Origin: a virus
Taxonomy: Duplodnaviria; Caudoviricetes
Direction: 5' to 3' (one strand)
Virus record (IMG/VR): IMGVR_UViG_3300046058_000002
Location: 1 to 32,642 of that record
Length of the DNA: 32,642 bases
Shown here: positions 4,870-32,642 of the stretch, in pieces
Layout: every line of letters begins with the position of its first letter
How positions within the stretch are numbered: the stretch's first letter is position 1
The notes under the pieces: generated by a model
What the model saw: the letters and a program-made list of their open reading frames with translations, nothing else
The model's database searches: none
Told to the model about the DNA's origin: nothing
Program-made: the position numbers and the translations under genes

Positions 4870-5033
4870 CAGTTACCTTCAGGCGGCCGGCGTCGGTTTT
4901 TCCGCTCCTGACGATAGTCAGAAGCCCTACGGACGATTCGCTTGAACGTTTCAGAGAACAGTGCGCCATAAGCCAGACCGAGATGGAGCGCCCCCTCGGG
5001 CGGCATCTCAGCTACGAAGTCAAGACCGAACAT
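4869..5033 (-). CDS. Small hypothetical protein (54 aa, MFGLDFVAEM...)
   Basis: Track ORF 4869..5195 restarted at ATG 5033; hydrophobic segment followed by an Arg-rich tail. Confidence 0.55.
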   Translation of the reverse strand: MFGLDFVAEMPPEGALHLGLAYGALFSETFKRIVRRASDYRQERKNRRRPPEGN

Positions 5034-5520
5034 CGAGGAATGTGTCATTGTCGAGAAGTTGTTTCGTGTACACGGCAGCCTTCTCGGTTTCCCAAGTGAC
5101 GCCGGGATACTTGCCCGGATACAGATGCTTGAACGGCGTCTGTCGCCAGTCGGGTTCGTGATGGGCGTAGATTTCACGGCCATCCTCACCGTCACGACGC
5201 TCGAACATCGTGATGTGAAGTTGATAGCCCGGTTCTATGAAGTCGCCGGGGTCATCGCCTTCGAGTAAAACCCACGACCCTTCGGACTCCCGCTCGTCTC
5301 CGGTGGACTTGTAGCAGGCGATGGGGTTGCGGATGAAGCCGATGTCGCAGATTTCCTCTTCGAGAGCTTCCTCGTCGGTACTGACCTTTCCAACGTACTG
5401 GTTCTCGCCGACGTGACCAACGCCGTAGCCACCGACCCTGTTCAGAAGCGGATGAATCTTCGGGTAGTAGAAGGAGCGGAAGTCTTCAATCCAGTCGTCG
5501 TCAGAATTGAGAGAATTCAT
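5020..5520 (-). CDS. Hypothetical protein (166 aa)
   Basis: Acidic ORF directly downstream of the tail fibre; QLHITMF and IYAHHEPDW look like conserved motifs; function not recognised. Confidence 0.75.
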   Translation of the reverse strand: MNSLNSDDDWIEDFRSFYYPKIHPLLNRVGGYGVGHVGENQYVGKVSTDEEALEEEICDIGFIRNPIACYKSTGDERESEGSWVLLEGDDPGDFIEPGYQLHITMFERRDGEDGREIYAHHEPDWRQTPFKHLYPGKYPGVTWETEKAAVYTKQLLDNDTFLDVRS

Positions 5521-5559
5521 AGATTCTAATAAGTGATGGTATTTGACGTAGTGGTACTA

Positions 5560-7161
5560 TTATGGTAGTTCGTCTTCTCTCATTTCGGAGTAGAACTCCT
5601 GTCGATAACTTGTGAAGTCGTCTCCCAACTCGGTTTCAATCCAGAACTCGAACTCCCCACTTCTATCGGAGTTCTTTATATCAATCTTGATTTCTTTCAC
5701 ATTATTGTATCCGGGGTGGCTCATTTCATAGATGAGGTCGCCAGAAGATACGTGCCGGAGCTGAAGACCTGCCTGAGAGCCTCCTGTGTCGATTTTACTC
5801 AACCACTTCAGGAATTGCTTCTTACTGAAGTCCATGTTGAGCGACCCGAACACGTGCCATTCGTTGTCTCGGTCCCTACCAGTGGTCCCACTGTAGTTGT
5901 TATTATACGAACTGTGGTAGTTGTCTCTATACACCACGTCGTTAGGTGTTAAATCGTAGACAATTGCGGGTTTAGAACCGATTTCGCTCGCGTGCTGCCC
6001 GTCAACCGTGTCTGCGTCAAAATTGTTACCTGACCCCTCTCCTGACGCCGAAACGTCGTCAAGGTCGCCGAGGTTAATTCCGCTGATACCGTTGTGGATG
6101 TTAACAGGACCGTAGAATCGCGTTTCTTCACCCTGATTTTTATAATTCATCAGGATTCCTTTTCCGTTTCCGTCAATCTCTATCCAGTCAGAGTTTGACT
6201 GAATACCTTCACGGTCGAAGTAGACTGTGGACGAAGGAGCATCCCAATCGTCCAGACTACGATTCTGCGTGTTCAGGTTTGTGACGTGGCCGTTCCCATC
6301 AACGTAGATGTCATCGACCACCGTCGCGCCGCCGGTCGTCACGTCACCCTGAGAACTGGTGCTGGCGTGAGAGATGGTCGGTTGCGACTCGTCGCCCTTC
6401 CCACCGTTGACGTTGATGTGAGTCCCAGCGGAGACGTTGTAGGAGTCCCACAGGACAGCCATTCCGTTGCCGCCCCAGTTGCCGATGAACCCCATCGAGT
6501 CGTCCATGCCGAGTTCGGCATCTGCAACAGTCTCGATATTGTTGAACTGCGTTCTGTCGAGGCCAGTGGCCTGATTACCACCGAAGTCGAGATTGCCACC
6601 CATCCTGTCGCCCGACTCCAGAACGTAGCGGGAGTCGTCAACATCCACGTTGACCGTCCCGCCGAGGGCAACAGAGCCGCCACCGTTCAGACCAGTACCG
6701 GCGCTGACAGTGATGTTGTCGTTCTGAAGACGACCCTGCGGGATGTGACCAGCAGAGTAGTCCCATACGACATTGCCGTTGTTGTCAACGAGGTCGGTGT
6801 GGTTCTGGACAGGGTAGTTCCCCATATCCAGCGCCCCGGTCATCGTATCGCCGTCGCGGAACATGATGTCCCGCCACGTATTCGCCGTTGCGTCGTACAG
6901 TTCCAGACGCTCGTTGTCTTGGTCGTGGTAGAAGTGCGACGTTTCCGGGCTTTCCGGTTCACCACCAGCCGCGCCATACTCGCTTTCGACCCGCGAGTTA
7001 GTGAGCGGAATCAGATGGTCTTTGATGTCGTTGACGATTTGATTCGTAAGGAAGTTGTCCCACTCGTCAACCGGCTGTTCACCCTCGACGTAGTTGTAGC
7101 CGTCCGGGTATTCCGCACCGTTGGCTCCCCACGTCTTGAGATTTGTAGTGTAACTTGCCAT
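5560..7161 (-). CDS. Tail fibre / adhesin
   Basis: Follows the baseplate genes; fibre-type repeats GDTMTGALDM and GDRMGGNLDF, also AGTGLNGGG and DADTVDGQHAS; G/N/D/S-rich. Confidence 0.85.
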   Translation of the reverse strand: MASYTTNLKTWGANGAEYPDGYNYVEGEQPVDEWDNFLTNQIVNDIKDHLIPLTNSRVESEYGAAGGEPESPETSHFYHDQDNERLELYDATANTWRDIMFRDGDTMTGALDMGNYPVQNHTDLVDNNGNVVWDYSAGHIPQGRLQNDNITVSAGTGLNGGGSVALGGTVNVDVDDSRYVLESGDRMGGNLDFGGNQATGLDRTQFNNIETVADAELGMDDSMGFIGNWGGNGMAVLWDSYNVSAGTHINVNGGKGDESQPTISHASTSSQGDVTTGGATVVDDIYVDGNGHVTNLNTQNRSLDDWDAPSSTVYFDREGIQSNSDWIEIDGNGKGILMNYKNQGEETRFYGPVNIHNGISGINLGDLDDVSASGEGSGNNFDADTVDGQHASEIGSKPAIVYDLTPNDVVYRDNYHSSYNNNYSGTTGRDRDNEWHVFGSLNMDFSKKQFLKWLSKIDTGGSQAGLQLRHVSSGDLIYEMSHPGYNNVKEIKIDIKNSDRSGEFEFWIETELGDDFTSYRQEFYSEMREDELP

Positions 7162-7164
7162 GAT

Positions 7165-7812
7165 TTACTCGATAAGGCCCGCGTAAGTGCCGCCGTTGTC
7201 CTTCGGGTTTCCATCAGAATCGAGGCCGTCGTAACCTTTGCTGGCCTCGTAGTTCGCGTTCTCGTACTCTGTCGGAGTGATGTAAGTGAAGGTTCCACGC
7301 CGGACTGCGCTGAAGTTGAATCCGGCGGCGATGAGGCTCGTTGCGATTTCAACGAACTCGTCGTTTGTGATGGAAAGTGAATCCAGAGCGTTACCCGGAA
7401 CGGCCAGCGTTACGGAGCCGTGACCGTCCTTCCGATAGTCGATTTTTTCGATTTCAACGTCGAGGATGGTCGCAACGTTGCTGACCAGTTCGTTGATGCT
7501 CCCCTCGTTGGTGACTTGCTGAAATTCGACCAGAACATGCGACCGATACTTCTCCGTCCCTTCGTCCTGCTTCGATGGGAGGGACACCATCTTCGCCAGT
7601 TCCTCAAGCTGAGGAACCGTCTCCGCGTCCTGAACTGAAGTCGCTCTATCTAACTCCTCGATGTCGTCTTCCAGTCGGTCAACTGCATGGCCGACCGTAT
7701 CGAGGAGCTTGAAGTTACCCGTGGACTCGTCGGTCGGCATCCAAGCGGGCAACCGGCGGAGAATGTAACTGCCGGAATCCGACTTCTCGGACTCTTTAAT
7801 TTCTGCTCCCAT
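7165..7812 (-). CDS. Baseplate wedge protein (P2 gpI / Mu gp48-like)
   Basis: Between baseplate J and the fibre; LPAW...LEELAKMV...EKYR pattern. Confidence 0.7.
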   Translation of the reverse strand: MGAEIKESEKSDSGSYILRRLPAWMPTDESTGNFKLLDTVGHAVDRLEDDIEELDRATSVQDAETVPQLEELAKMVSLPSKQDEGTEKYRSHVLVEFQQVTNEGSINELVSNVATILDVEIEKIDYRKDGHGSVTLAVPGNALDSLSITNDEFVEIATSLIAAGFNFSAVRRGTFTYITPTEYENANYEASKGYDGLDSDGNPKDNGGTYAGLIE

Positions 7813-7819
7813 CAGTCAA

Positions 7820-9553
7820 TCACTTCGGATTCGTTTCGAAGGTGAGAGAGCTGTCCACGCCGTCTGACGTTGAGACTTGATTGTCGTTGATGGCGATGTT
7901 CGAGGTTCCGTCAGGCTCAGAGTGGGTGTCAACCGTCAGGTTAGACACGTCGTAGACCCCTTCCACGTCCCGAATCTGGTACTCTATCTCGCCGAAGATA
8001 ACGTCCTCTCCAGCGCCGAGTCCCTGCGATTCGTTCCCTGAAGTGAAGATTCCGCCGATGTGGTCGATGATGGAGTCGCGAACTGCGTCCTTCCCATCGA
8101 AGCTGTCGGCGACCGTGAGGTCAGCATCCACGTAAATCTGGATGCTCTCCGGTCGGGAGAACTCGATAGTGAACGTCTGCCCGTTATCGAGTGTAGACGC
8201 GGCGGAGTCCTGCGTCCCGTTGATGCCGCCGTGGGGCGTATCACCAGCGGCCATCGTCTCGAAGATGGCGTCGGCGATGTCTTGCGTATCGCCGCCCTCT
8301 GCGACGACCTCGAAGCCGTCGTCAGTCTCGTCAGCGTCAACTTGAATCTTGAACAGGCTGACCGACGTGACGCCCTCGACCGCGCTGACAGAGCCGTAGA
8401 GTGCAGGCATCGAGGCGCGGGACCCGTTCGAAAGCTCCGTCTTCGCCCGCTGGCGAAGCTCGTTGTCGTTTTCCCGTTCGTTCCCGCCGTCAACCGGGTC
8501 CTTGTTCGTAACGTACTCGACACCAGTTGGCGGGTCTGGCATCGTCTGGATGGTGTTCGGAGCGGTGTTCGAGTTAAGACCACTCTCGACCGCGACCACT
8601 TCAGCGTCAATCGCCGTTGCGGTGAAGTAGTCCCAATACTTCGCGGCGTTCGCGTCACCGCTTTTGAAGCCGATTCCACCAGACGTGTGCGTCGTATCGT
8701 CGCCTGAGAGAGATGCGAACTGGTCATCGGCTCCGTCGAAGAAGTACAGCGAGAAGGCCCCGCCGCGACTCCATTGAACTTTGACCTTCACTCGTTTTTT
8801 GGCCGGGACAGACGCGGAGGTGTCTTCGGCGACAACAGTTTTTGTGGCACCTTCGAGAACTTCGAGCGCAACGCGCCCGGAGTCGTTATCCACGACCACC
8901 TGATAGGTGTTCGCGTCATCACGATACGAGAACTCCGTGATGGAGATGCCGCCGGTTCCGACTTGCGTGTAGAACCTAAAGTCAGTCCCGTGGCGAACCG
9001 TCCAGTTCTTGTTGTGGACTTCTACACCCGAGGTAGCCGAGACTTCGAGAGAGTTAGACCCTTCAAGAACGGTGTCAGACTGAACATTGAAGTCCGTCTT
9101 GTCGCCGTCGTACTCGGCGATGTCTCCGTCGCTGAAGTTGTCGTACAAGCGAAGCGTAGCCGATTGAATCGTCTCGTATCTGGTCGAAGCGGAGTCGTCA
9201 GTCTGGACTTCAGTCCCCTTCCCAGCAATATAGACCGACTCTGCTGGCGTGTCTCGGCTGAACGTCACATAGCCGCTCGCACTCCCGGCCTTCTGGCGGC
9301 TAACTCCGATAAGGGCGCAGAGCAAGTCAAGAGCTTTGCCGCTCGCGTAGTCGATTTGGGTCGAATCGAGGACCAGACCGATGTTAGACTGGGCTTCAGC
9401 AAGCTGTTCAGCGATAGGCCGGTAAAACCGCTTGATGATGTTGAGCGAGGTGTCGTTCAGTTCCTCGTCCCAGTAGTCCTTCGCGTCTGCCACCATCGCG
9501 TCGAGGATGGCATCGGCTGTCTCTTCCTCAAAACGTCCGTCTGTAATTGTCAT
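7820..9553 (-). CDS. Baseplate J-like wedge protein with an internal domain insertion
   Basis: ASGKALDLLCALIGVSR, ASGYVTFS, GGNERENDNELRQR and SAVEGVTSV are typical baseplate J motifs. Confidence 0.9.
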   Translation of the reverse strand: MTITDGRFEEETADAILDAMVADAKDYWDEELNDTSLNIIKRFYRPIAEQLAEAQSNIGLVLDSTQIDYASGKALDLLCALIGVSRQKAGSASGYVTFSRDTPAESVYIAGKGTEVQTDDSASTRYETIQSATLRLYDNFSDGDIAEYDGDKTDFNVQSDTVLEGSNSLEVSATSGVEVHNKNWTVRHGTDFRFYTQVGTGGISITEFSYRDDANTYQVVVDNDSGRVALEVLEGATKTVVAEDTSASVPAKKRVKVKVQWSRGGAFSLYFFDGADDQFASLSGDDTTHTSGGIGFKSGDANAAKYWDYFTATAIDAEVVAVESGLNSNTAPNTIQTMPDPPTGVEYVTNKDPVDGGNERENDNELRQRAKTELSNGSRASMPALYGSVSAVEGVTSVSLFKIQVDADETDDGFEVVAEGGDTQDIADAIFETMAAGDTPHGGINGTQDSAASTLDNGQTFTIEFSRPESIQIYVDADLTVADSFDGKDAVRDSIIDHIGGIFTSGNESQGLGAGEDVIFGEIEYQIRDVEGVYDVSNLTVDTHSEPDGTSNIAINDNQVSTSDGVDSSLTFETNPK

Positions 9554-26251: not shown

Positions 26252-26520
26252 TTTCGAACTAAGAACGAGGACGGTCTGTCGTGGTTGTCCTTGGGGACCG
26301 CGACCGACGCCGGAGGAATCGACCGTTCCGGCTTGAACTGGTAGTGAAGACCGCCGATGAAACCCACCAGCGGCCGCCCGAAGCGTTCTTCCAACGCTTC
26401 AAGCATATCGTAGTCCATGATGGCTTCTTCGTCGTCGTAGGTGATTACCTCGGCGTTGTGAACCATGTCGTAGCCTGCCGAGAACGATTCCGTAACTGGA
26501 TTGAAGTCGGTTTCAGCCAT
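26248..26520 (-). CDS. Hypothetical protein (MAETDFNP..., 90 aa)
   Basis: Track ORF 26248..26592 restarted at ATG 26520, overlapping the upstream stop. Confidence 0.7.
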   Translation of the reverse strand: MAETDFNPVTESFSAGYDMVHNAEVITYDDEEAIMDYDMLEALEERFGRPLVGFIGGLHYQFKPERSIPPASVAVPKDNHDRPSSFLVRK

Positions 26521-27319
26521 CGTTGTCTTTGAATCTGTCGGGGTCGTAGTCCTCGTCGGACTCCTCAACCGCCTCAGTGGCGATTTCCGCAACGGCTTCG
26601 TTGGCGGACGCCTCGCTTTCGAGGGTGTCCATCTTCTGCCGCTCCTTGGGAGTCAGTCCCAACTCTTTCATTTGGTTGGTGACTTCCGACATCAGCAGTC
26701 GGTACTCTCGCGAGAGCGGGTTCTCGGCGTCCTTATAGCCGACTTCGACGCCCTGCTCGTCAAAGACAGGCTCGTCGTGAACCTCATGGTTGTCGAGGTA
26801 GTCCTCCTCGCGGAGAGCGCGTACCTCGTTGACGGCGACACGGCGGAGAATCCGGTATCGCGCCGGGTCCTCCGACCTGTCGGGCCAGTTATAGATGTCC
26901 GGCCAGTCCTCCATGATTTCATCATAAAGGTCTTGCTCGTGTTCGTCAAAATCCATGATTAAGTGTTCGTCGTCAGCGTAAGCGCCGTGCTTGATACCCG
27001 CCGTGAGCGGGTTCTCCAGCTTATCCTTGTGCTTGTGACCCTGCTTCTCTACGTCGCCGCCGTGGAAGGGACAGCAGACCGCGTAGGCGGCCTTATCGGT
27101 TCCCTCACCCTCGTAGTCATCCTCATCCTTCTTCGCGGCGCGTCTCTTACAAAAACGCTGAGGTCCGTCGTACTCGTCAGGTTGTTTTCCGATAGGGTTC
27201 AGGCAGTACGCAACCTCGAACGGAATGTCATGTTCGAGATACCGGGGAGTGTTGTAATATTCTCCCTCAAGCTCGCGCAATTCCGACGGGGAAGCCCCAG
27301 TAAGTTCTCCAGCGGCCAT
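26513..27319 (-). CDS. Putative terminase small subunit
   Basis: First gene of the morphogenesis operon; C..FC...CPFHGG zinc-like motif, GIKHGAYA, and ENPL...ELGLTPKER (P27-like TerS C-terminus). Confidence 0.75.
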   Translation of the reverse strand: MAAGELTGASPSELRELEGEYYNTPRYLEHDIPFEVAYCLNPIGKQPDEYDGPQRFCKRRAAKKDEDDYEGEGTDKAAYAVCCPFHGGDVEKQGHKHKDKLENPLTAGIKHGAYADDEHLIMDFDEHEQDLYDEIMEDWPDIYNWPDRSEDPARYRILRRVAVNEVRALREEDYLDNHEVHDEPVFDEQGVEVGYKDAENPLSREYRLLMSEVTNQMKELGLTPKERQKMDTLESEASANEAVAEIATEAVEESDEDYDPDRFKDNDG

Positions 27320-27355
27320 CTGTCGGTCTAATAGTATAGTTAACGTCGCTTGTTT

Positions 27356-27369
27356 ACAGCGATAAGGTC
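27356..27369. repeat. 14-mer ACAGCGATAAGGTC, copy 3 (candidate late promoter element)
   Basis: About 37 nt upstream of the terS ATG; part of the hairpin ACAGCGA-TAAGG-TCGCTGT. Confidence 0.85.
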
Positions 27370-28605
27370 GCTGTTGGTGTACTGCTGTATAGTCTAAGGT
27401 ACTGTCCTACTGTAAAGCTCCCAAAGTAGGACTATAACAATGTCCCCATACAGGGGCGCACGTCAACTGACTTCATCAGTGAAGCCAGCTTCCTCACTAC
27501 AATGAAAGGACAATAGTTTATATACCGTGGGGGGTGGTGAAGTCAGCCCCGTCAGGCTATTCAGCAACGCCGGTCATGAAGCGGAGAAGGTCGGCAGTTT
27601 TGTCACTATGCGCGCTTTCCAACTGTTCGACTTCGGCGATGGTTTCCGCGATAACGTCGCGGTCGTGTTCTTCACGAAGCTCTATGCCTGCGTCACGGAG
27701 TTGTTCGGGCAGTGATTGCTCCACAGGTGATATACGCGCTCTGATGACTTAAAAATGGGGCAAAAATCGGGGTGTTGTCATATCCAGTTGGGCATGAAAT
27801 GACCCCCCACCCCGTCGAAATCTGACTGAGAGCCGTCTGCAATGTACGTCGGGTTACTAAACTCGCGCGCGCCTCCCCGGTCTGATGTAATAACCCCCTG
27901 ATTTCCCTGACTTCACGCCCGTATGCCCCCATATCACGTCACATACACTTGACTTCATGCCACACTATCGCATGACGTGAAATATGGGGCACGCCCCCGG
28001 TTTCGGCGTATCTGTCCATATCGGCACGTTCACACTCCCAATGAGTCCATATTCAGCGTGTCCCCGGTCACTTCACCCTCGTTTTCCTGTCAGCATCCCG
28101 AATTTGCCGGATATTCCCGGCCTTATCGGTGTCAAAAGAGGTATTAGCAGGTTATTTGACCCTGAAATGAAGTCTATATCAGCCATATTCACCGGAAAAC
28201 ACCCCCCTGATTTCACCATCCAAGGCCCCCGGTTCACGAGGGGGGTGTGACTTCAGAATTTTGGAAGCTCAGCTACCTTAGCTCCGGGTTCTGTCCTCAA
28301 CTGTTGGCCCGCAGATTTCAGCAGTTCTGGCAGTAGCGTCTCTCTCCTCGGTCTAATCCTCTGCTTTTGGCTCACCTAACTCTCAAATCGGGGGGTTTGC
28401 CTCGATAAGCCCCGTTTTCTCCGGTTTCTGGACATCTCAGTATGCTCTACTCCCTGCTTAGGACGTTTGAGTATGGATTGTTACGTCATGTTCTACCTGC
28501 AAATATACCCCGTCTACCCTTATGGATAATCGGCTTTCATACCGCGCCACGGGGTTCCCGCCCGCATAATGCGCCGCGAACCCCGGCCGCGACGGTATCG
28601 GTAGA

Positions 28606-28612
28606 TTTATAT
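28606..28612 (+). promoter_or_regulatory. Archaeal TATA box for a leaderless transcript
   Basis: TTTATAT about 27-33 nt upstream of ATG 28639. Confidence 0.65.
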
Positions 28613-28638
28613 GATACCTCGGTCAATGGTCAGTTGCA

Positions 28639-29403
28639 ATGTCGAACCAAACCGAAGTTGCGACGAAGGTCGAAGAGCTTTCAACTACGTTGAACGTTGA
28701 TGTCGAAGACATCACCATCTCCATCGAAGATGGAGGACTCAGAGAGACTGTCATCAGCGGAGCTGATGTGGCAGAGTACCTCACCGAAGGTGAGGACGAA
28801 TCTGAGGACACCAGCGAAGCTGGTGAGGAGGACGAGGACATCAGCGAAGCTGATGAGGACACCACCGAAGGTGGTGAGGTGCATCTCGAAGAGATGGAGT
28901 ACAACGACCTGTTGGCTCTCATCAGCGAAGCTGATGTGGACTACCCCGAAGATTCCAGCAAAGCTGGACTCCTCGAAGCGGCAGAAGACATCGAAGATGT
29001 CAGCACCGTCATCGAAGATGACGAGGACATCAGCGAAGCTGATGAGGATGTCACCGAAGGTGACGATGACGAAGACACCATCGAAGATGGTGAGAACGAA
29101 GAAGACAGCATCTCCGATGCTGAACTGGTCGAAGCCGGAGTGAAGGAGTCTAACATCGAAGATGTTAGGAAGTACCGTTCGAAGAACGGTGTCTGCTCCG
29201 AGGAAAACTGCCCCTACGGGGCAAATAACGGCGAGGAGTTCTGTGCTTCCCATCAAGGAAGCAGTTCGAAGTCGAAGACTTCGACGGATTCCCCGAAGGG
29301 GAACCGGGAACTCTCCGACCTCAGCGAAGCTGAGCAGAACCTCGTTTCCTCCCTCATCGGAGATGAGGGGAAGAGCCTCGAAGAGGCTATCAGCATGGTG
29401 TGA
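28639..29403 (+). CDS. Very acidic protein with a HeH/Rho-N-like segment and a C3H zinc-finger-like motif
   Basis: LEEMEYNDLLALISEADVDYPEDSSKAGLLEA; CSEENCPYGANNGEEFCASH; EDISEADED duplicated; TATA box upstream. Confidence 0.75.
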   Translation: MSNQTEVATKVEELSTTLNVDVEDITISIEDGGLRETVISGADVAEYLTEGEDESEDTSEAGEEDEDISEADEDTTEGGEVHLEEMEYNDLLALISEADVDYPEDSSKAGLLEAAEDIEDVSTVIEDDEDISEADEDVTEGDDDEDTIEDGENEEDSISDAELVEAGVKESNIEDVRKYRSKNGVCSEENCPYGANNGEEFCASHQGSSSKSKTSTDSPKGNRELSDLSEAEQNLVSSLIGDEGKSLEEAISMV

Positions 29404-29531
29404 AGTCGTAGACTTCAAACACTCAAAGTCATAGACTTTGAATCTTATCACAAAGTGATACCGATGCCAATGACCACCTTCGGTGGTGACGGTCAGGCTT
29501 CGGCTTCGAAGAAGCCGGGACACAACTGACA

Positions 29532-29927
29532 ATGACCGACGAAGCCAACATCGAAGATGTTGCATCGACAGCAAATGACTTTAGCGAAGCTACCTCCGAA
29601 GAGGTTCAAAGGGCCGCTTTCGAAGAAAGCGATACCCCAACCAGCCTAATGGCTGGTGTCGAAGACCACGGCATCGGAGATGCCGATACCGTCAAAGGCC
29701 AAGCAAGGAGAGCCGAAGAGGTTCATCTCGAAGAGATGAGGGAAGACAGCGATAAGGTCGAAGGGTGGGATACCCCGGAGGTCGAAGACCTCGAACCCCT
29801 CCCGACTCCCAGCGAAGCTGAACTCGGGGAACTCTGCCGAGTTCCCGAAACCCAGTTCGAAGAACTGGAGCTTGTCGATAACGACACTCCGGCCCTTATC
29901 GGAGTCCTCGAAGAGGAGGGTCGGTAA
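29532..29927 (+). CDS. Acidic hypothetical protein (131 aa)
   Basis: ORF track; D/E-rich; the next ATG lies 1 nt after its stop. Confidence 0.7.
   Translation: MTDEANIEDVASTANDFSEATSEEVQRAAFEESDTPTSLMAGVEDHGIGDADTVKGQARRAEEVHLEEMREDSDKVEGWDTPEVEDLEPLPTPSEAELGELCRVPETQFEELELVDNDTPALIGVLEEEGR
29746..29759. repeat. 14-mer ACAGCGATAAGGTC, copy 4 (inside a CDS)
   Basis: Exact match. Confidence 0.8.
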
Positions 29928-29928
29928 G

Positions 29929-30174
29929 ATGTCCGACTCCGAAGGAGTCGAGAGCTACCCCCCGAAGGGGAACGGTCCCTTCGATTCAAGAGCCGAAGAG
30001 GCTATCGACTGGTATCAGCATTATATGGCTGTCGAGGTCGAAGACCTCGCTCTGGAGTACATCTCGAAGAAGGGGTCCGAAGGACCCGACCCATCTCCGA
30101 TGATGGAGAAGGCCGTCGAAGCTCGCTTCGAAGAAGCGGGGGAAGCCCTCCTCGGAGAAGAGGTGAACCGATGA
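29929..30174 (+). CDS. Acidic hypothetical protein (81 aa, MSDSEGVE...)
   Basis: Restarted at ATG 29929 with GGAGG upstream; ATGA overlap with the next ORF. Confidence 0.7.
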   Translation: MSDSEGVESYPPKGNGPFDSRAEEAIDWYQHYMAVEVEDLALEYISKKGSEGPDPSPMMEKAVEARFEEAGEALLGEEVNR

Positions 30175-30338
30175 ACGACTCCGAAGGAGTTGAGATGCCC
30201 TTCAGGGACTTCAGCGAAGCTGAAGATGACGAAGACCACGAGGACTGGAAGTCCTCACAGAGTCCCGAAGGGACTGTCGAAGTCTCTTCAGGACTGAAGG
30301 CTTCGAGAGACAGTCCCTCGAAGAAGGGAGAACGATGA
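30171..30338 (+). CDS. Small acidic protein (55 aa, MNDSEGVE...)
   Basis: Translated by hand; GAGGTGA RBS; ATGA overlaps at both ends. Confidence 0.65.
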   Translation: MNDSEGVEMPFRDFSEAEDDEDHEDWKSSQSPEGTVEVSSGLKASRDSPSKKGER

Positions 30339-30607
30339 AGCTCGAAAAGAGCTTCGACCTCTGTCGGAAGGCAGAGGAATACGAGGCTTCGACTCACCTC
30401 ATCCAAAGGATGAGGGAGCGACCCCTCCTCGAAGCAGATGTCGTTATCGACATTATCGAAGATGGCGACATCGTAGATGTCGATAGCAACGAAGGGGGTT
30501 CCGACCGATGTGTCACCCTTCGGGGTGACTGGTGCTTATCGACCTTCGAGGTCAAGCTCTGTCCGAAAGACAGGGTGGTCCAAACGGCCTATGAGGTCGA
30601 AGAATGA
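30335..30607 (+). CDS. DUF4258-like (RelE/BrnT-related) putative ribonuclease
   Basis: STHLIQRMRER...IIEDGDIV...VVQTAY matches the family pattern as I recall it. Confidence 0.65.
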   Translation: MKLEKSFDLCRKAEEYEASTHLIQRMRERPLLEADVVIDIIEDGDIVDVDSNEGGSDRCVTLRGDWCLSTFEVKLCPKDRVVQTAYEVEE

Positions 30608-30678
30608 TAGAAGCGATTTGGGTCCTCATCTTAACCCCCCTTGGGGTCTTCTGGACCTTTTCGGTGGTGCGATTCTGA
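30604..30678 (+). CDS. 24-aa hydrophobic membrane peptide
   Basis: MIEAIWVLILTPLGVFWTFSVVRF; GAGGT upstream; ATGA overlap. Confidence 0.45.
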   Translation: MIEAIWVLILTPLGVFWTFSVVRF

Positions 30679-30728
30679 CCCTTCGGCAGCAAAGACTCGA
30701 AGTGAGGCGCTTCGAATCCTAACCAGCT

Positions 30729-30771
30729 TTCTTCACCTCATAAGAGGTGAAGAAGGTCGGTTTTTTTTTTT
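30729..30771 (+). terminator. Hairpin plus T11 terminator
   Basis: TTCTTCACCTC-ATAA-GAGGTGAAGAA (11 bp), then a T run at 30761-30771, at the end of the operon. Confidence 0.75.
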
Positions 30772-31014
30772 CGCGCCCGCGCGGCAATTAATCGCGGGGG
30801 AATTAATAATGCGCTTTAAAAGCCGAAGGCTTTTCGCGCGAGCGAATTGGAATTGCCGCGCGAATTGCAATTGGCGAGCGTTAAGTGAATTAAGACGCGC
30901 GAGCCACCCCTTACGGGGTTCTAATGGGTTATGATTACCCTCCGGGGAAGGGAACCGCGAGGGACCCCGAAGGGAGGTCGCGCGGCTTCTTTCTTCGAAC
31001 GAAATTACTGTTAA

Positions 31015-31028
31015 ACAGCGATAAGGTC
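31015..31028. repeat. 14-mer ACAGCGATAAGGTC, copy 5
   Basis: Exact match in noncoding DNA, preceded by CTGTTAA. Confidence 0.85.
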
Positions 31029-32642
31029 GGCGGGGTTTTACTTAGAAGGAGGGAGGGTCCCTTAGTTAATTATTAGAAGGACCCCCTCCAGTCTTAATCG
31101 CGGGCGCGAAGGGTCGAGATTGGCTTTCTTCAATGCTCAAATCTCTGGAATTTGGCGATATTGAGAGATTTCCATGGATAAAGGCAAATCCCTCAGACTG
31201 TCGATTTCCCTACTCAGCGTCGGCCTCGCCGTCGATTTCTATTTTCCTCAAGATTTGCTTTTGGTTGTCGCAAAGATTGCCTGTATCAAACCCTACTGGA
31301 TAATCTCCTTGACAGATGGCTCATCGTCGGCTTTCGGCAGTATCAGCATAGCTAGCGTCGATTTCTCTACTCCCACCTGACTCCGACAGATATATATGGT
31401 ACCTCGGTCTATGGTGATACAGGTCGCTCGCACACAAGTTCTCCTCGTCCACACACACACGCGATGTGTTGTGCTGGACGGGGGGACCCCTCATCCCGCG
31501 TTTATTAAAGGGGTGAGAGGGGGCCTTTGGGGGCTTTAAGCCCTCGCACGATGACACCTTCGCCCCCTAAGGGAGTTCCCTTTAAGGGCGAAGCCCAAAT
31601 GGTTGCCTTCGGTTGTCCTGACCCCTTACGGGTCGAAGACGTTTTCAAGGGGCGTAAGAAGGCTTCGCGGGACGGTTAAAGTGCGCCTCCCTTAAGGGAG
31701 GACGTGTCAGTAGCCGCCGAATATCCAAAGGCGTTCGAAGGGGAGTTCCCCCGAAGGTTAAACGCCGAGTTCGACCCGACACCCTTCGTGTTTGTAAATT
31801 CATGTCGCGGTCTTCGGAAGAAGCCGCACCGAGGCGAGTTCACTCCTTAAGGGGTGAACATCGACCCGATGACGGAAGGTTCGGACCCTCGAAGAATTCC
31901 TTCGAGCTACGTTAACGGCATAGAGGGATTACAGCCCGGTAGGGCTGAACGCCCCATTAAGGACCTCACGAGGTCTAAGACTCGAAGCTCAACGCTAAGA
32001 TTCTTAGGCTTCTTAAGGGCATCGCCAGCCACACTTCCACCGAAAAGTGAGGCGGTAGAAACCTTCGAAGGGATTTATTAGAACCCTCGAAGGGGACCCG
32101 AAGTAGTGATTCAGGAGGTTCACACCCTTCGACCTCTTGAAAGCTCACGAAGACCGACCGACTTAGGAGGGTCACGATGACACCGTGACAGAGCCAAAGA
32201 CAGCCACGGAAAACCGGACGAAGAAGCTTTGAGCAAAGGCTCCGAGAGGGGTTCCGGCTCGAAGTGGAGTTACGGGGCAAATGCGACTCGAAGAGTGTTC
32301 CTCGAAGAGTTCTAAGACGACTGGCGTAACGGGGTTTCACCCCTCGAAGAGTTCCTTCGGGGTGGAGCGTTGTAAGGAACGGCCTTCGCTTCGGACTACA
32401 AAAGAAGCAAACGAGGAAGCCGAGAGACAGCTTCCAGCCCTTAAGGCGATGAAGTCACGCAACTGGCGAAGCCAAGAGACAGCCGACCCGGTTAGGGTCG
32501 AAGGTGGATTTATACGGCCTTCGACCCCCGGACCCGACCCTTCTCTTCGGGAAACAACAGGGAACGAGAAGTCACTCTGCGAAGTGAGTGACACAACCTT
32601 CCGACAAATGTCTGGATTCGACCTTAGCGACTCGATAGCGGC

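Follow-up and report, generated by a model that had tools for sequence, protein, structure and literature searches.

A dense array of triloop mini-hairpins laid over the predicted first early transcription unit of a haloarchaeal tailed virus

Short DNA hairpins have a precedent at the early end of a tailed virus genome, namely in the early promoters of phage N4, where a short stem, a 3-nt loop, a C-G closing pair and a G..A loop make up single hairpins that lie upstream on the template strand and are read by the phage's own polymerase; their extrusion from supercoiled DNA needs both the C-G closure and the G..A loop (PMC4496689). Perfect inverted repeats inside translated genes are described from the mitochondria of Nematomorpha, where they are either perfect or absent, are gained and lost, show a bias against the costly codon phase and have been proposed to arise by template switching; these palindromes are long (to 284 bp) and scattered, with no stated loop rule (PMC6649704). 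Tightly packed DNA hairpins with GNA loops, thought to resist single-strand nucleases, occur near the linear end in Streptomyces telomeres, whose palindromes take up about 170-180 nt, are non-coding, sit at the very end and go with terminal proteins (PMC5449611). Among the 64 triloops, GNA alone forms a DNA mini-hairpin, GAA being the most stable; the DNA mini-hairpin melts at 76.5 C and its RNA counterpart at 39 C, and GNA DNA hairpins are nuclease-resistant and poorly bound by single-strand binding protein (PMC13037366).

Here, I show that hairpins of this kind are packed into coding DNA at the predicted early end of an uncultured haloarchaeal virus, forming an array of coding palindromes built from N4-type elements, the function of which is predicted from sequence. 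The window (the whole stretch of DNA that was analysed, 32,642 nt) holds about 45 of them inside one unit, on either strand (mostly the coding strand within genes) and with free stems. Stem and loop agree with those of N4 (5-7 bp stem, C-G closing, G-x-A loop), for in five array genes 103 of 109 triloops are closed by C-G and 94 are GNA on one strand or the other, whereas the N4 placement, on the template strand just upstream of the start, is not found. With the Nematomorpha palindromes the array shares an excess over shuffles (26 versus 2.7) in a conserved ORF and avoidance of the phase in which wobble bases pair with each other; it differs in its 6-10 bp arms, its C-GNA-G loops and its confinement to one early viral unit. 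Unlike in Streptomyces, the array is coding and the end region itself is without it, no such palindromes lying in the terminal 180 nt of the cultured halovirus HSTV-2. No description of such an array was found in the literature searched, the original HF2 and HSTV-2 genome papers and their supplements being outside its scope; the main text of a survey of archaeal Caudoviricetes (PMC8651126) uses neither 'palindrom' nor 'hairpin', and the HF1-group paper treats palindromes as avoided restriction sites (PMC7230728).

The window is one partial contig of 32.6 kb, about half a genome, in which PolB, RtcB, tail, capsid, portal and terminase genes were recognised. By TerL, TerS, portal, capsid, sheath, PolB and RtcB in the order of HF1 and HSTV-2, the virus is a haloarchaeal myovirus of the Hafunaviridae kind, from an uncultured lineage; TerS and TerL matched HF1-like and HSTV-2-like viruses only (52 and 53 records), the identities to the HF1/HF2 and HSTV-2/HRTV-7 groups being 44-46% for TerS and 39-48% for TerL. 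A TerS tree, meant to order the gains and losses of the array, gave support for none of its 7 branches. The ORF at 28639-29403 is the first gene in the arm directed away from terS, and its positional counterpart in HSTV-2, gp104 (253 aa), begins 621 bp away from a genome end bearing a 340-bp terminal repeat. By analogy with the HSTV-2 layout, the genome end of the window virus probably lies between terS and 28639; the terminal repeat was not located in this partial contig. Early transcripts of HF2, a virus without an encoded RNA polymerase, come from the corresponding arm (PMC8707807). The arm with the hairpin-tiled gene may be the one that goes into the cell first. No virus-encoded RNA polymerase was found among the 32 ORFs scanned in this half genome.

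The initial annotation had equated the feature with that single gene. Its hairpins are there, but the limit is wrong: the array exceeds the gene, continues past the stop codon to about 30760, and has the bounds of a predicted transcription unit, laid out as follows.

26513-27319, minus strand: terminase small subunit gene, divergent neighbour of the first early gene, assigned by family and similarity searches.
28606-28613, plus strand: predicted first early promoter, TTTATATG, about 26-33 nt before the ATG, a box which I take to be TATA-like by the archaeal consensus.
28639-29403, plus strand: first gene of the early arm, an open ORF for a modular acidic protein of 254 aa, with 26 perfect triloop hairpins (28680-29388).
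29401-29531, no strand assigned: non-coding spacer with five more hairpins, the first of which takes in the stop codon.
29532-29927, plus strand: second ORF, 131 aa, 8 hairpins.
29929-30174, plus strand: third ORF, 81 aa, 5 hairpins.
30171-30338, plus strand: fourth ORF, 55 aa, 3 hairpins.
30335-30607, plus strand: fifth ORF, 90 aa, DUF4258-like (under the Pfam cut-off), 4 hairpins.
30726-30771, plus strand: predicted terminator, an 11-bp hairpin followed by T11, and end of the array.

When G-N-A or A-N-A loops on either strand are counted, about 45 mini-hairpins fall in the 2122 nt of the unit, from the TATA-like box (28606) to the T-run (30761), 25 of them in the gene and 20 in the 1357 nt that follow it (the spacer and the four small ORFs); the 1300 nt upstream have 0, and the 1800 nt after the unit have 1. 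The corresponding series for upstream, gene, rest of the unit and after are 0/19/7/1 in the relative L011, 0/22/17/0 in L012 and 0/22/11/0 in L013, the upstream count of the last resting on just 46 nt. The edges are less sharp in HSTV-2 (2/16/2/5), where 2 mini-hairpins lie in the 620 nt preceding the gene and 5 past the T-run, the array starting about 0.7 kb from the end. Since the counts go from zero to dense to near zero across promoter-like and terminator-like sites, the array matches the predicted first transcription unit. In each of five sequences (window, L011, L012, L013 and L001) an AT-rich box precedes the ATG by about 30 nt, and the first transcript is likely leaderless; in the array genes the first loop comes 46-76 nt in, the initial ~40 nt being hairpin-free. 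Spacer stems differ among relatives, and spacer loops occur in both orientations. A small DUF4258-like protein ends the unit in the window, L011, L012, L013 and L008.

Within the first gene, the estimate that more than half of the nucleotides lie in hairpins is borne out, as 414 of its 765 nt (54%; among array genes coverage reaches 58%) belong to 26 perfect triloop inverted repeats, whose arms measure 6-8 bp. The loops are mostly in frame and mostly Glu, as had been read from the sequence: 21 of the 26 are whole codons (16 GAA, 2 GGA, 1 AAA, 1 TCC, 1 TAC) and the remaining 5 begin at codon position 3. The recurring tripeptides IED, SEA, TEG, VED, LEE, SGA and IGD are all found in the ORF, and even its ordered-looking parts are encoded through hairpins, with loops at aa 84, 97 and 108 in a helix pair and at aa 193 in the motif C186-x4-C191-x10-C202-x2-H205. 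Synonymous shuffles within the gene (n = 500) give a mean of 2.7 hairpins and a maximum of 8, recoding by genome codon usage a mean of 0.9 and a maximum of 5, and 12 other genes of the window hold 19 hairpins in 16,950 nt. Contigs from run X1, possibly the source sample, show 0 differences from the gene. The hairpin observation is therefore real and far beyond chance.

The loops were tallied in five array genes, picked because they have arrays, and comprise 109 triloops against 9 tetraloops, on arms of 6-10 bp with a peak at 7 bp. The triloops are GNA on the coding strand in 77 cases and on the template strand in 17, ANA in 10 and other in 5, so that 104 of the 109 are G-N-A or A-N-A on one strand or the other; ANA loops, too, are stable in DNA. 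Around the stop codon (70 nt, eight viruses), the loops are split 8 to 7 between the two orientations, with 3 in neither. No stem has an internal G-T pair, and the first pair beyond the stem is G-T in 32 cases versus A-C in 44. DNA-stable C-GNA-G loops on either strand and stems without internal G-T, together with the compensated stems and inverted loops described below, make it likely that the structure folds as DNA rather than RNA. The coding-strand excess of GNA (77:17) may come from Glu codons, and an RNA effect fits it too; as ViennaRNA gives equal DNA energies for both strands, the GNA effect cannot be weighed by them. A search of 27000-32642 against Rfam yielded no structured RNA family and one chance-level match (E 0.52). 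Hairpin spacings are bimodal, with clusters at 21-24 and 30-34 nt; between 60 and 71% of 35-nt intervals contain a full hairpin (29-40% do not), and in 2 of the 5 genes the gaps are spaced more evenly than at random. Helical phasing is not claimed, the statistic being as high at periods of 12-13 as at 10.5, and three unrelated arrays show no phasing (R 0.04-0.16).

What relatives conserve is the hairpin structure more than its sequence. In a five-gene alignment that includes the array-less relative L007, 69 of 180 pairs change on both sides, against 29.5 in shuffles and 12-25 in slid controls, the structure having been taken from the window, which favours the window's structure. The stem of the stop-codon hairpin has a different sequence in each virus. 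Two loops are inverted between the same arms, GAA in the window versus TTC in L013 at 29274, and GTA in L012 versus TAC in L013 at 29431; spacer inversion is held to be a mark of template switching (PMC8604942). Among the 469 cores possible in five arrays there are 154 perfect ones, another 21 that fail at the outer pair alone and 7 with one internal mismatch, none of these being G-T; the remainder of the window has 1 perfect core out of 528. Compensated stems and inverted loops in homologs make it likely that template switching keeps the array perfect.

The gene has 29 homologs at 33-73% identity and 43 profile matches. Among ten genes tested, six hold 19-26 hairpins (window, L011, L012, L013, HSTV-2 and HRTV-11) and four hold 0-5 (L004, L007, L008 and the weak homolog L009). 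HSTV-2 gp104 has 22, a pattern repeated in HRTV-7 and HCTV-6, and is tied to the window gene by its place in the genome, a C-terminus that is similar and a low-scoring profile match (E 1e-4, uncorrected for composition), tblastn giving no match. The array is kept between proteins about 24% identical. At the protein level, 25 of the 30 close homologs have more hairpin-compatible X-E-Y triads than any of 300 shuffles, as do just 4 of 35 distant proteins (one 1638-aa match excluded). The first genes of HF2, Serpecor1 and VOLN27B have 6, 4 and 6 hairpins, none with a GNA loop. By these three distributions the array is dispensable. Scans of related loci in metagenome and genome collections gave no confirmed homolog, and a motif scan of metagenomes gave 120 loci with 0 homologs by profile. 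In L007 the gene (L014:6848-7627) has, in place of mini-hairpins, a repeat of conserved sequence and 12-nt loop that occurs six times and looks like a repeated binding site inside the gene; the repeat spells PSNSSAVEEG and recurs in the proteins P0026, P0027, P0034, P0036 and P0045 of this lineage.

The protein itself looks real, judging by the close homologs, the invariant cysteines and the reading frame. Triloops in the five array genes start 79 times at codon position 1, 3 times at position 2 and 27 times at position 3; with a start at position 2, wobble bases face wobble bases in the stem and silent changes are of least help, and avoidance of this costly position points to a translated frame. 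The proposal of dual coding in the initial annotation is supported, in that G184, C186, C191, G194 and C202 are invariant in 30 of 30 close homologs while the hairpins are kept as structures. The dN/dS comparison that it had called for bears on translation indirectly (0.49, 0.57 and 0.60 for the whole gene, 0.16-0.26 for the best segments), although these ratios are not clean, several segments being saturated and the silent sites themselves constrained, and two segments exceed 1 (CCCH versus L011, 1.25; N-terminus versus L013, 1.19). A structure model (pTM 0.24) has four ordered islands among disordered acidic linkers, which the hairpins spell out.

28639-28794, plus strand: N-terminal helix-strand-strand-helix domain, aa 1-52, of low confidence (pLDDT 58-67) and no family.
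28882-28992, plus strand: HeH/SAP/Rho-N-like helix pair, aa 82-118, in a swappable slot, with matches under significance.
29194-29253, plus strand: C-x4-C-x10-C-x2-H, a predicted zinc knuckle, the motif being present in 30/30 close homologs.
29308-29400, plus strand: small C-terminal helical domain, aa 224-254 (pLDDT 69-87; dN/dS 0.19 versus L011).

Families in Pfam, PHROGs, NCBIfam and PADLOC gave no match to the protein, nor did a PDB sequence search, nor Foldseek at E<=0.001. The His of the knuckle is replaced by Cys in 2 of the 30 close homologs, and the three Cys are invariant in 45/45 rows. The earlier HeH/Rho-N reading of aa 82-118 is consistent with the two helices, the extended linker and repeated weak structural matches, yet it falls short of significance: residues 75-125 reach Z 3.1-4.3 to SAP, Rho-N and EndoVII, the best VIA match being SAP 1zrj (Z 4.3, rmsd 3.2, 46 aligned) where the typical chance best is Z 7-8, and Atlas rows of the HeH type have a TM of 0.78, below the Atlas bar. 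The module also differs from the fold in having no Pfam match and almost no basic residues (12 D/E, 1 K/R). In the 30 close homologs the slot is filled by the helix pair (12), a C2HC finger (13; best Pfam E 1e-4) or an HCCH motif (5), independently of the array, for L012 has 25 hairpins and no HeH, and L008 combines 5 hairpins with two repeats that resemble HeH by eye. With the module swappable and untied to the hairpins, the suggestion that the product binds its own hairpins is weak at best. Acidic DNA mimicry, the other suggested role, found no positive evidence: the acidic parts are predicted to be disordered (pLDDT <50), array-less homologs are acidic too (23-27% D/E versus 33% in the window protein), and comparison with mimics of the Ocr/ArdA kind gave one Atlas row to ArdA (TM 0.31) and no PDB sequence match. 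The protein is probably a modular early factor in its own right, with a predicted zinc knuckle, and not a reader of the hairpins. The first protein of the HF2 group (L002:11872-12753, L003:11317-12219) has EVNGIGNKYGERLL, presumably a helix-hairpin-helix-like motif, and a C-terminal helix like that of the window family; it seems to follow the same modular plan with a different module.

Three two-hairpin patterns matched 17 viral loci, namely 2 haloviruses, one duplicate contig and 14 other contigs, and 19 cellular loci; the patterns were built from the window gene, and the match counts therefore give no frequency. Dense arrays (16-30 hairpins per 750 nt) occur in 4 of the 14 other contigs, at L142:39-5573, L143:55-3962, L145:3667-4545 and L161:about 4950-9500; a further contig, L141, has a weaker array (9), nine have none, and so do all 19 cellular loci. 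Three of the four unrelated arrays adjoin a terminase large subunit gene. In L142 the array spans genes for a glutamine amidotransferase and an amidoligase-like protein (12 versus 1.6 and 14 versus 1.0 hairpins), in L143 and L145 it also covers DNA upstream of the first ORF, in L145 an ArdC-like gene lies downstream of it, and in L161 the first ORF, of 891 nt, holds 32 hairpins. No cultured relatives were found for L142 and L145; relatives of the L141 gene stand at the beginning of two Roseobacter phages. The first 500 nt of CRP-1 contain 8 hairpins of mixed loop type, and the first 4 kb of T7 and N4 hold 2 and 12, respectively.

The preferred explanation, with a probability of roughly 0.4, is that the array acts as a structural shield on the first-transcribed DNA. 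The operon would be transcribed soon after entry and the hairpins would fold then, negative supercoiling or strand opening by RNA polymerase extruding them as DNA, as at the N4 promoters; template switching by a polymerase would keep the arms perfect and flip the loops, and the array would be retained by selection for the resistance of folded GNA hairpins to nucleases and single-strand binding protein, so that little open single strand would be left for host defence nucleases or guide-RNA complexes. The unit-bounded array, the C-GNA-G loops, the strand symmetry in the spacer, the many perfect cores against few with an internal mismatch, the paired changes, the loop inversions and the arrays running through enzyme-like genes count for such a shield. 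Its dispensability in relatives, the incomplete coverage, the HSTV-2 hairpins outside the unit and the coding-strand GNA bias, which fits an RNA or codon effect as well, count against it, and palindromes can set off the Lamassu defence instead of evading defence (PMC11707656).

The chief rival is that the same marks of template switching arise without any function, a strongly transcribed first unit being a hotspot that makes and perfects short inverted repeats and the weakly constrained linkers tolerating them. The perfect-or-absent spectrum and the loop inversions are signatures of such events (PMC8604942), which need high transcription in yeast (PMC3820800), and the same argument has been made for the coding palindromes of Nematomorpha (PMC6649704); the distribution of the array among homologs is patchy besides. 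A functionless origin is nevertheless unlikely: late genes, presumably strongly transcribed too, lack the array (the capsid gene has 1 hairpin in 966 nt), a second promoter copy at about 31390 is followed by 1 hairpin in 1.8 kb, stems peak at 7 bp rather than growing, and arrays persist at the low protein identity noted above and cross enzyme-like genes. The match between array and transcription unit, with its free first ~40 nt, would equally suit hairpins that fold in the first transcript and guard it against RNases or premature termination; the predicted RNA hairpins average -7.6 kcal/mol, and three cUUCGg loops lie downstream. Such an armour of the mRNA is improbable given the preponderance of triloops over tetraloops, the rarity of GNRA/UUCG loops, the want of internal G-U pairs, the 32 G-T versus 44 A-C just beyond the stems and the strand-symmetric spacer loops. 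No better chance is given to a torsional role, in which mini-cruciforms would absorb negative supercoils (about 1.6 turns each, an arithmetic estimate) or ratchet the DNA as host RNA polymerase pulls the genome in: the N4-type extrusion rule is satisfied, the HSTV-2 array lies ~0.7 kb from the end and three of the four unrelated arrays adjoin terminase genes, but T7, whose genome enters by transcription, has just the 2 hairpins in its first 4 kb, close relatives do without the array, and a free end should relax supercoils. Very improbable is a docking array, to which the gene product or another protein would bind through the HeH or zinc modules, the hairpins serving autoregulation or acting as a decoy; although all three modules found in the slot, and the CCCH motif, look like nucleic-acid-binding folds and spacings cluster at 21-24 and 30-34 nt, module type is untied to the array, the HeH module is strongly acidic, stems vary freely, and the three unrelated arrays show no helical phasing.

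Going back to the shield, a wider proposal, tentative and with the odds against it, is that unrelated archaeal and bacterial tailed viruses converged on overlaying their first early operon with a second, structural code, a promoter-to-terminator array of extrudable DNA mini-hairpins, which would protect the incoming genome before anti-defence proteins are made. If true, this would be a protein-free, cis-acting class of counter-defence. It would bear on how tailed viruses survive from the entry of their DNA until anti-defence proteins first appear minutes later, and a DNA structure that spans an operon on top of its coding sequence would answer this in a new way. The proposal is directly testable, as the cultured HSTV-2, HRTV-7, HCTV-6 and HRTV-11 carry the array and relatives lack it. 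Were the array a functionless product of template switching instead, it would be a dense natural case of that process rewriting a protein, over half a gene, and would show the DNA of one viral operon to be in a special state inside the cell.

Two further candidates were set aside. The unit (28639-30770) has 18 AGCT and 7 TTCGAA sites, with 28 TTCGAA in the whole contig; palindromic sites are not depleted, and restriction avoidance was rejected. TTC is a haloarchaeal PAM, and PAM sequestration was rejected in that 13 of the 29 GAA Glu codons fall outside loops. TTCGAA is almost absent from HF1-group genomes (PMC7230728), which suggests a different host restriction background for the window virus.

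The promoter-like sequence found before 28639 recurs at 31381-31432, as an AT-rich box with a GATACCTCGGTC-like tract. The next 1.2 kb or so contain GC-rich hairpins of longer loop and no convincing ORF; a short part of this region matches the HSTV-2 gene 103 region, and it is possibly a non-coding RNA or control region. A motif, CGATAAGGTCG/CCGATAAGG, recurs in the terminal and early regions (27380-27400 and 27648-27660; e.g. 27361, 28125, 29895 and 31020) and in the L012 and L007 equivalents, sometimes forming a hairpin loop. In the HF2 group (L020:250-1850 and the L002 and L003 equivalents), a non-coding end of 1.6-1.8 kb lies upstream of the first gene, which has no array within it, and carries 11-14 GC-rich inverted repeats, several with TTAG loops.
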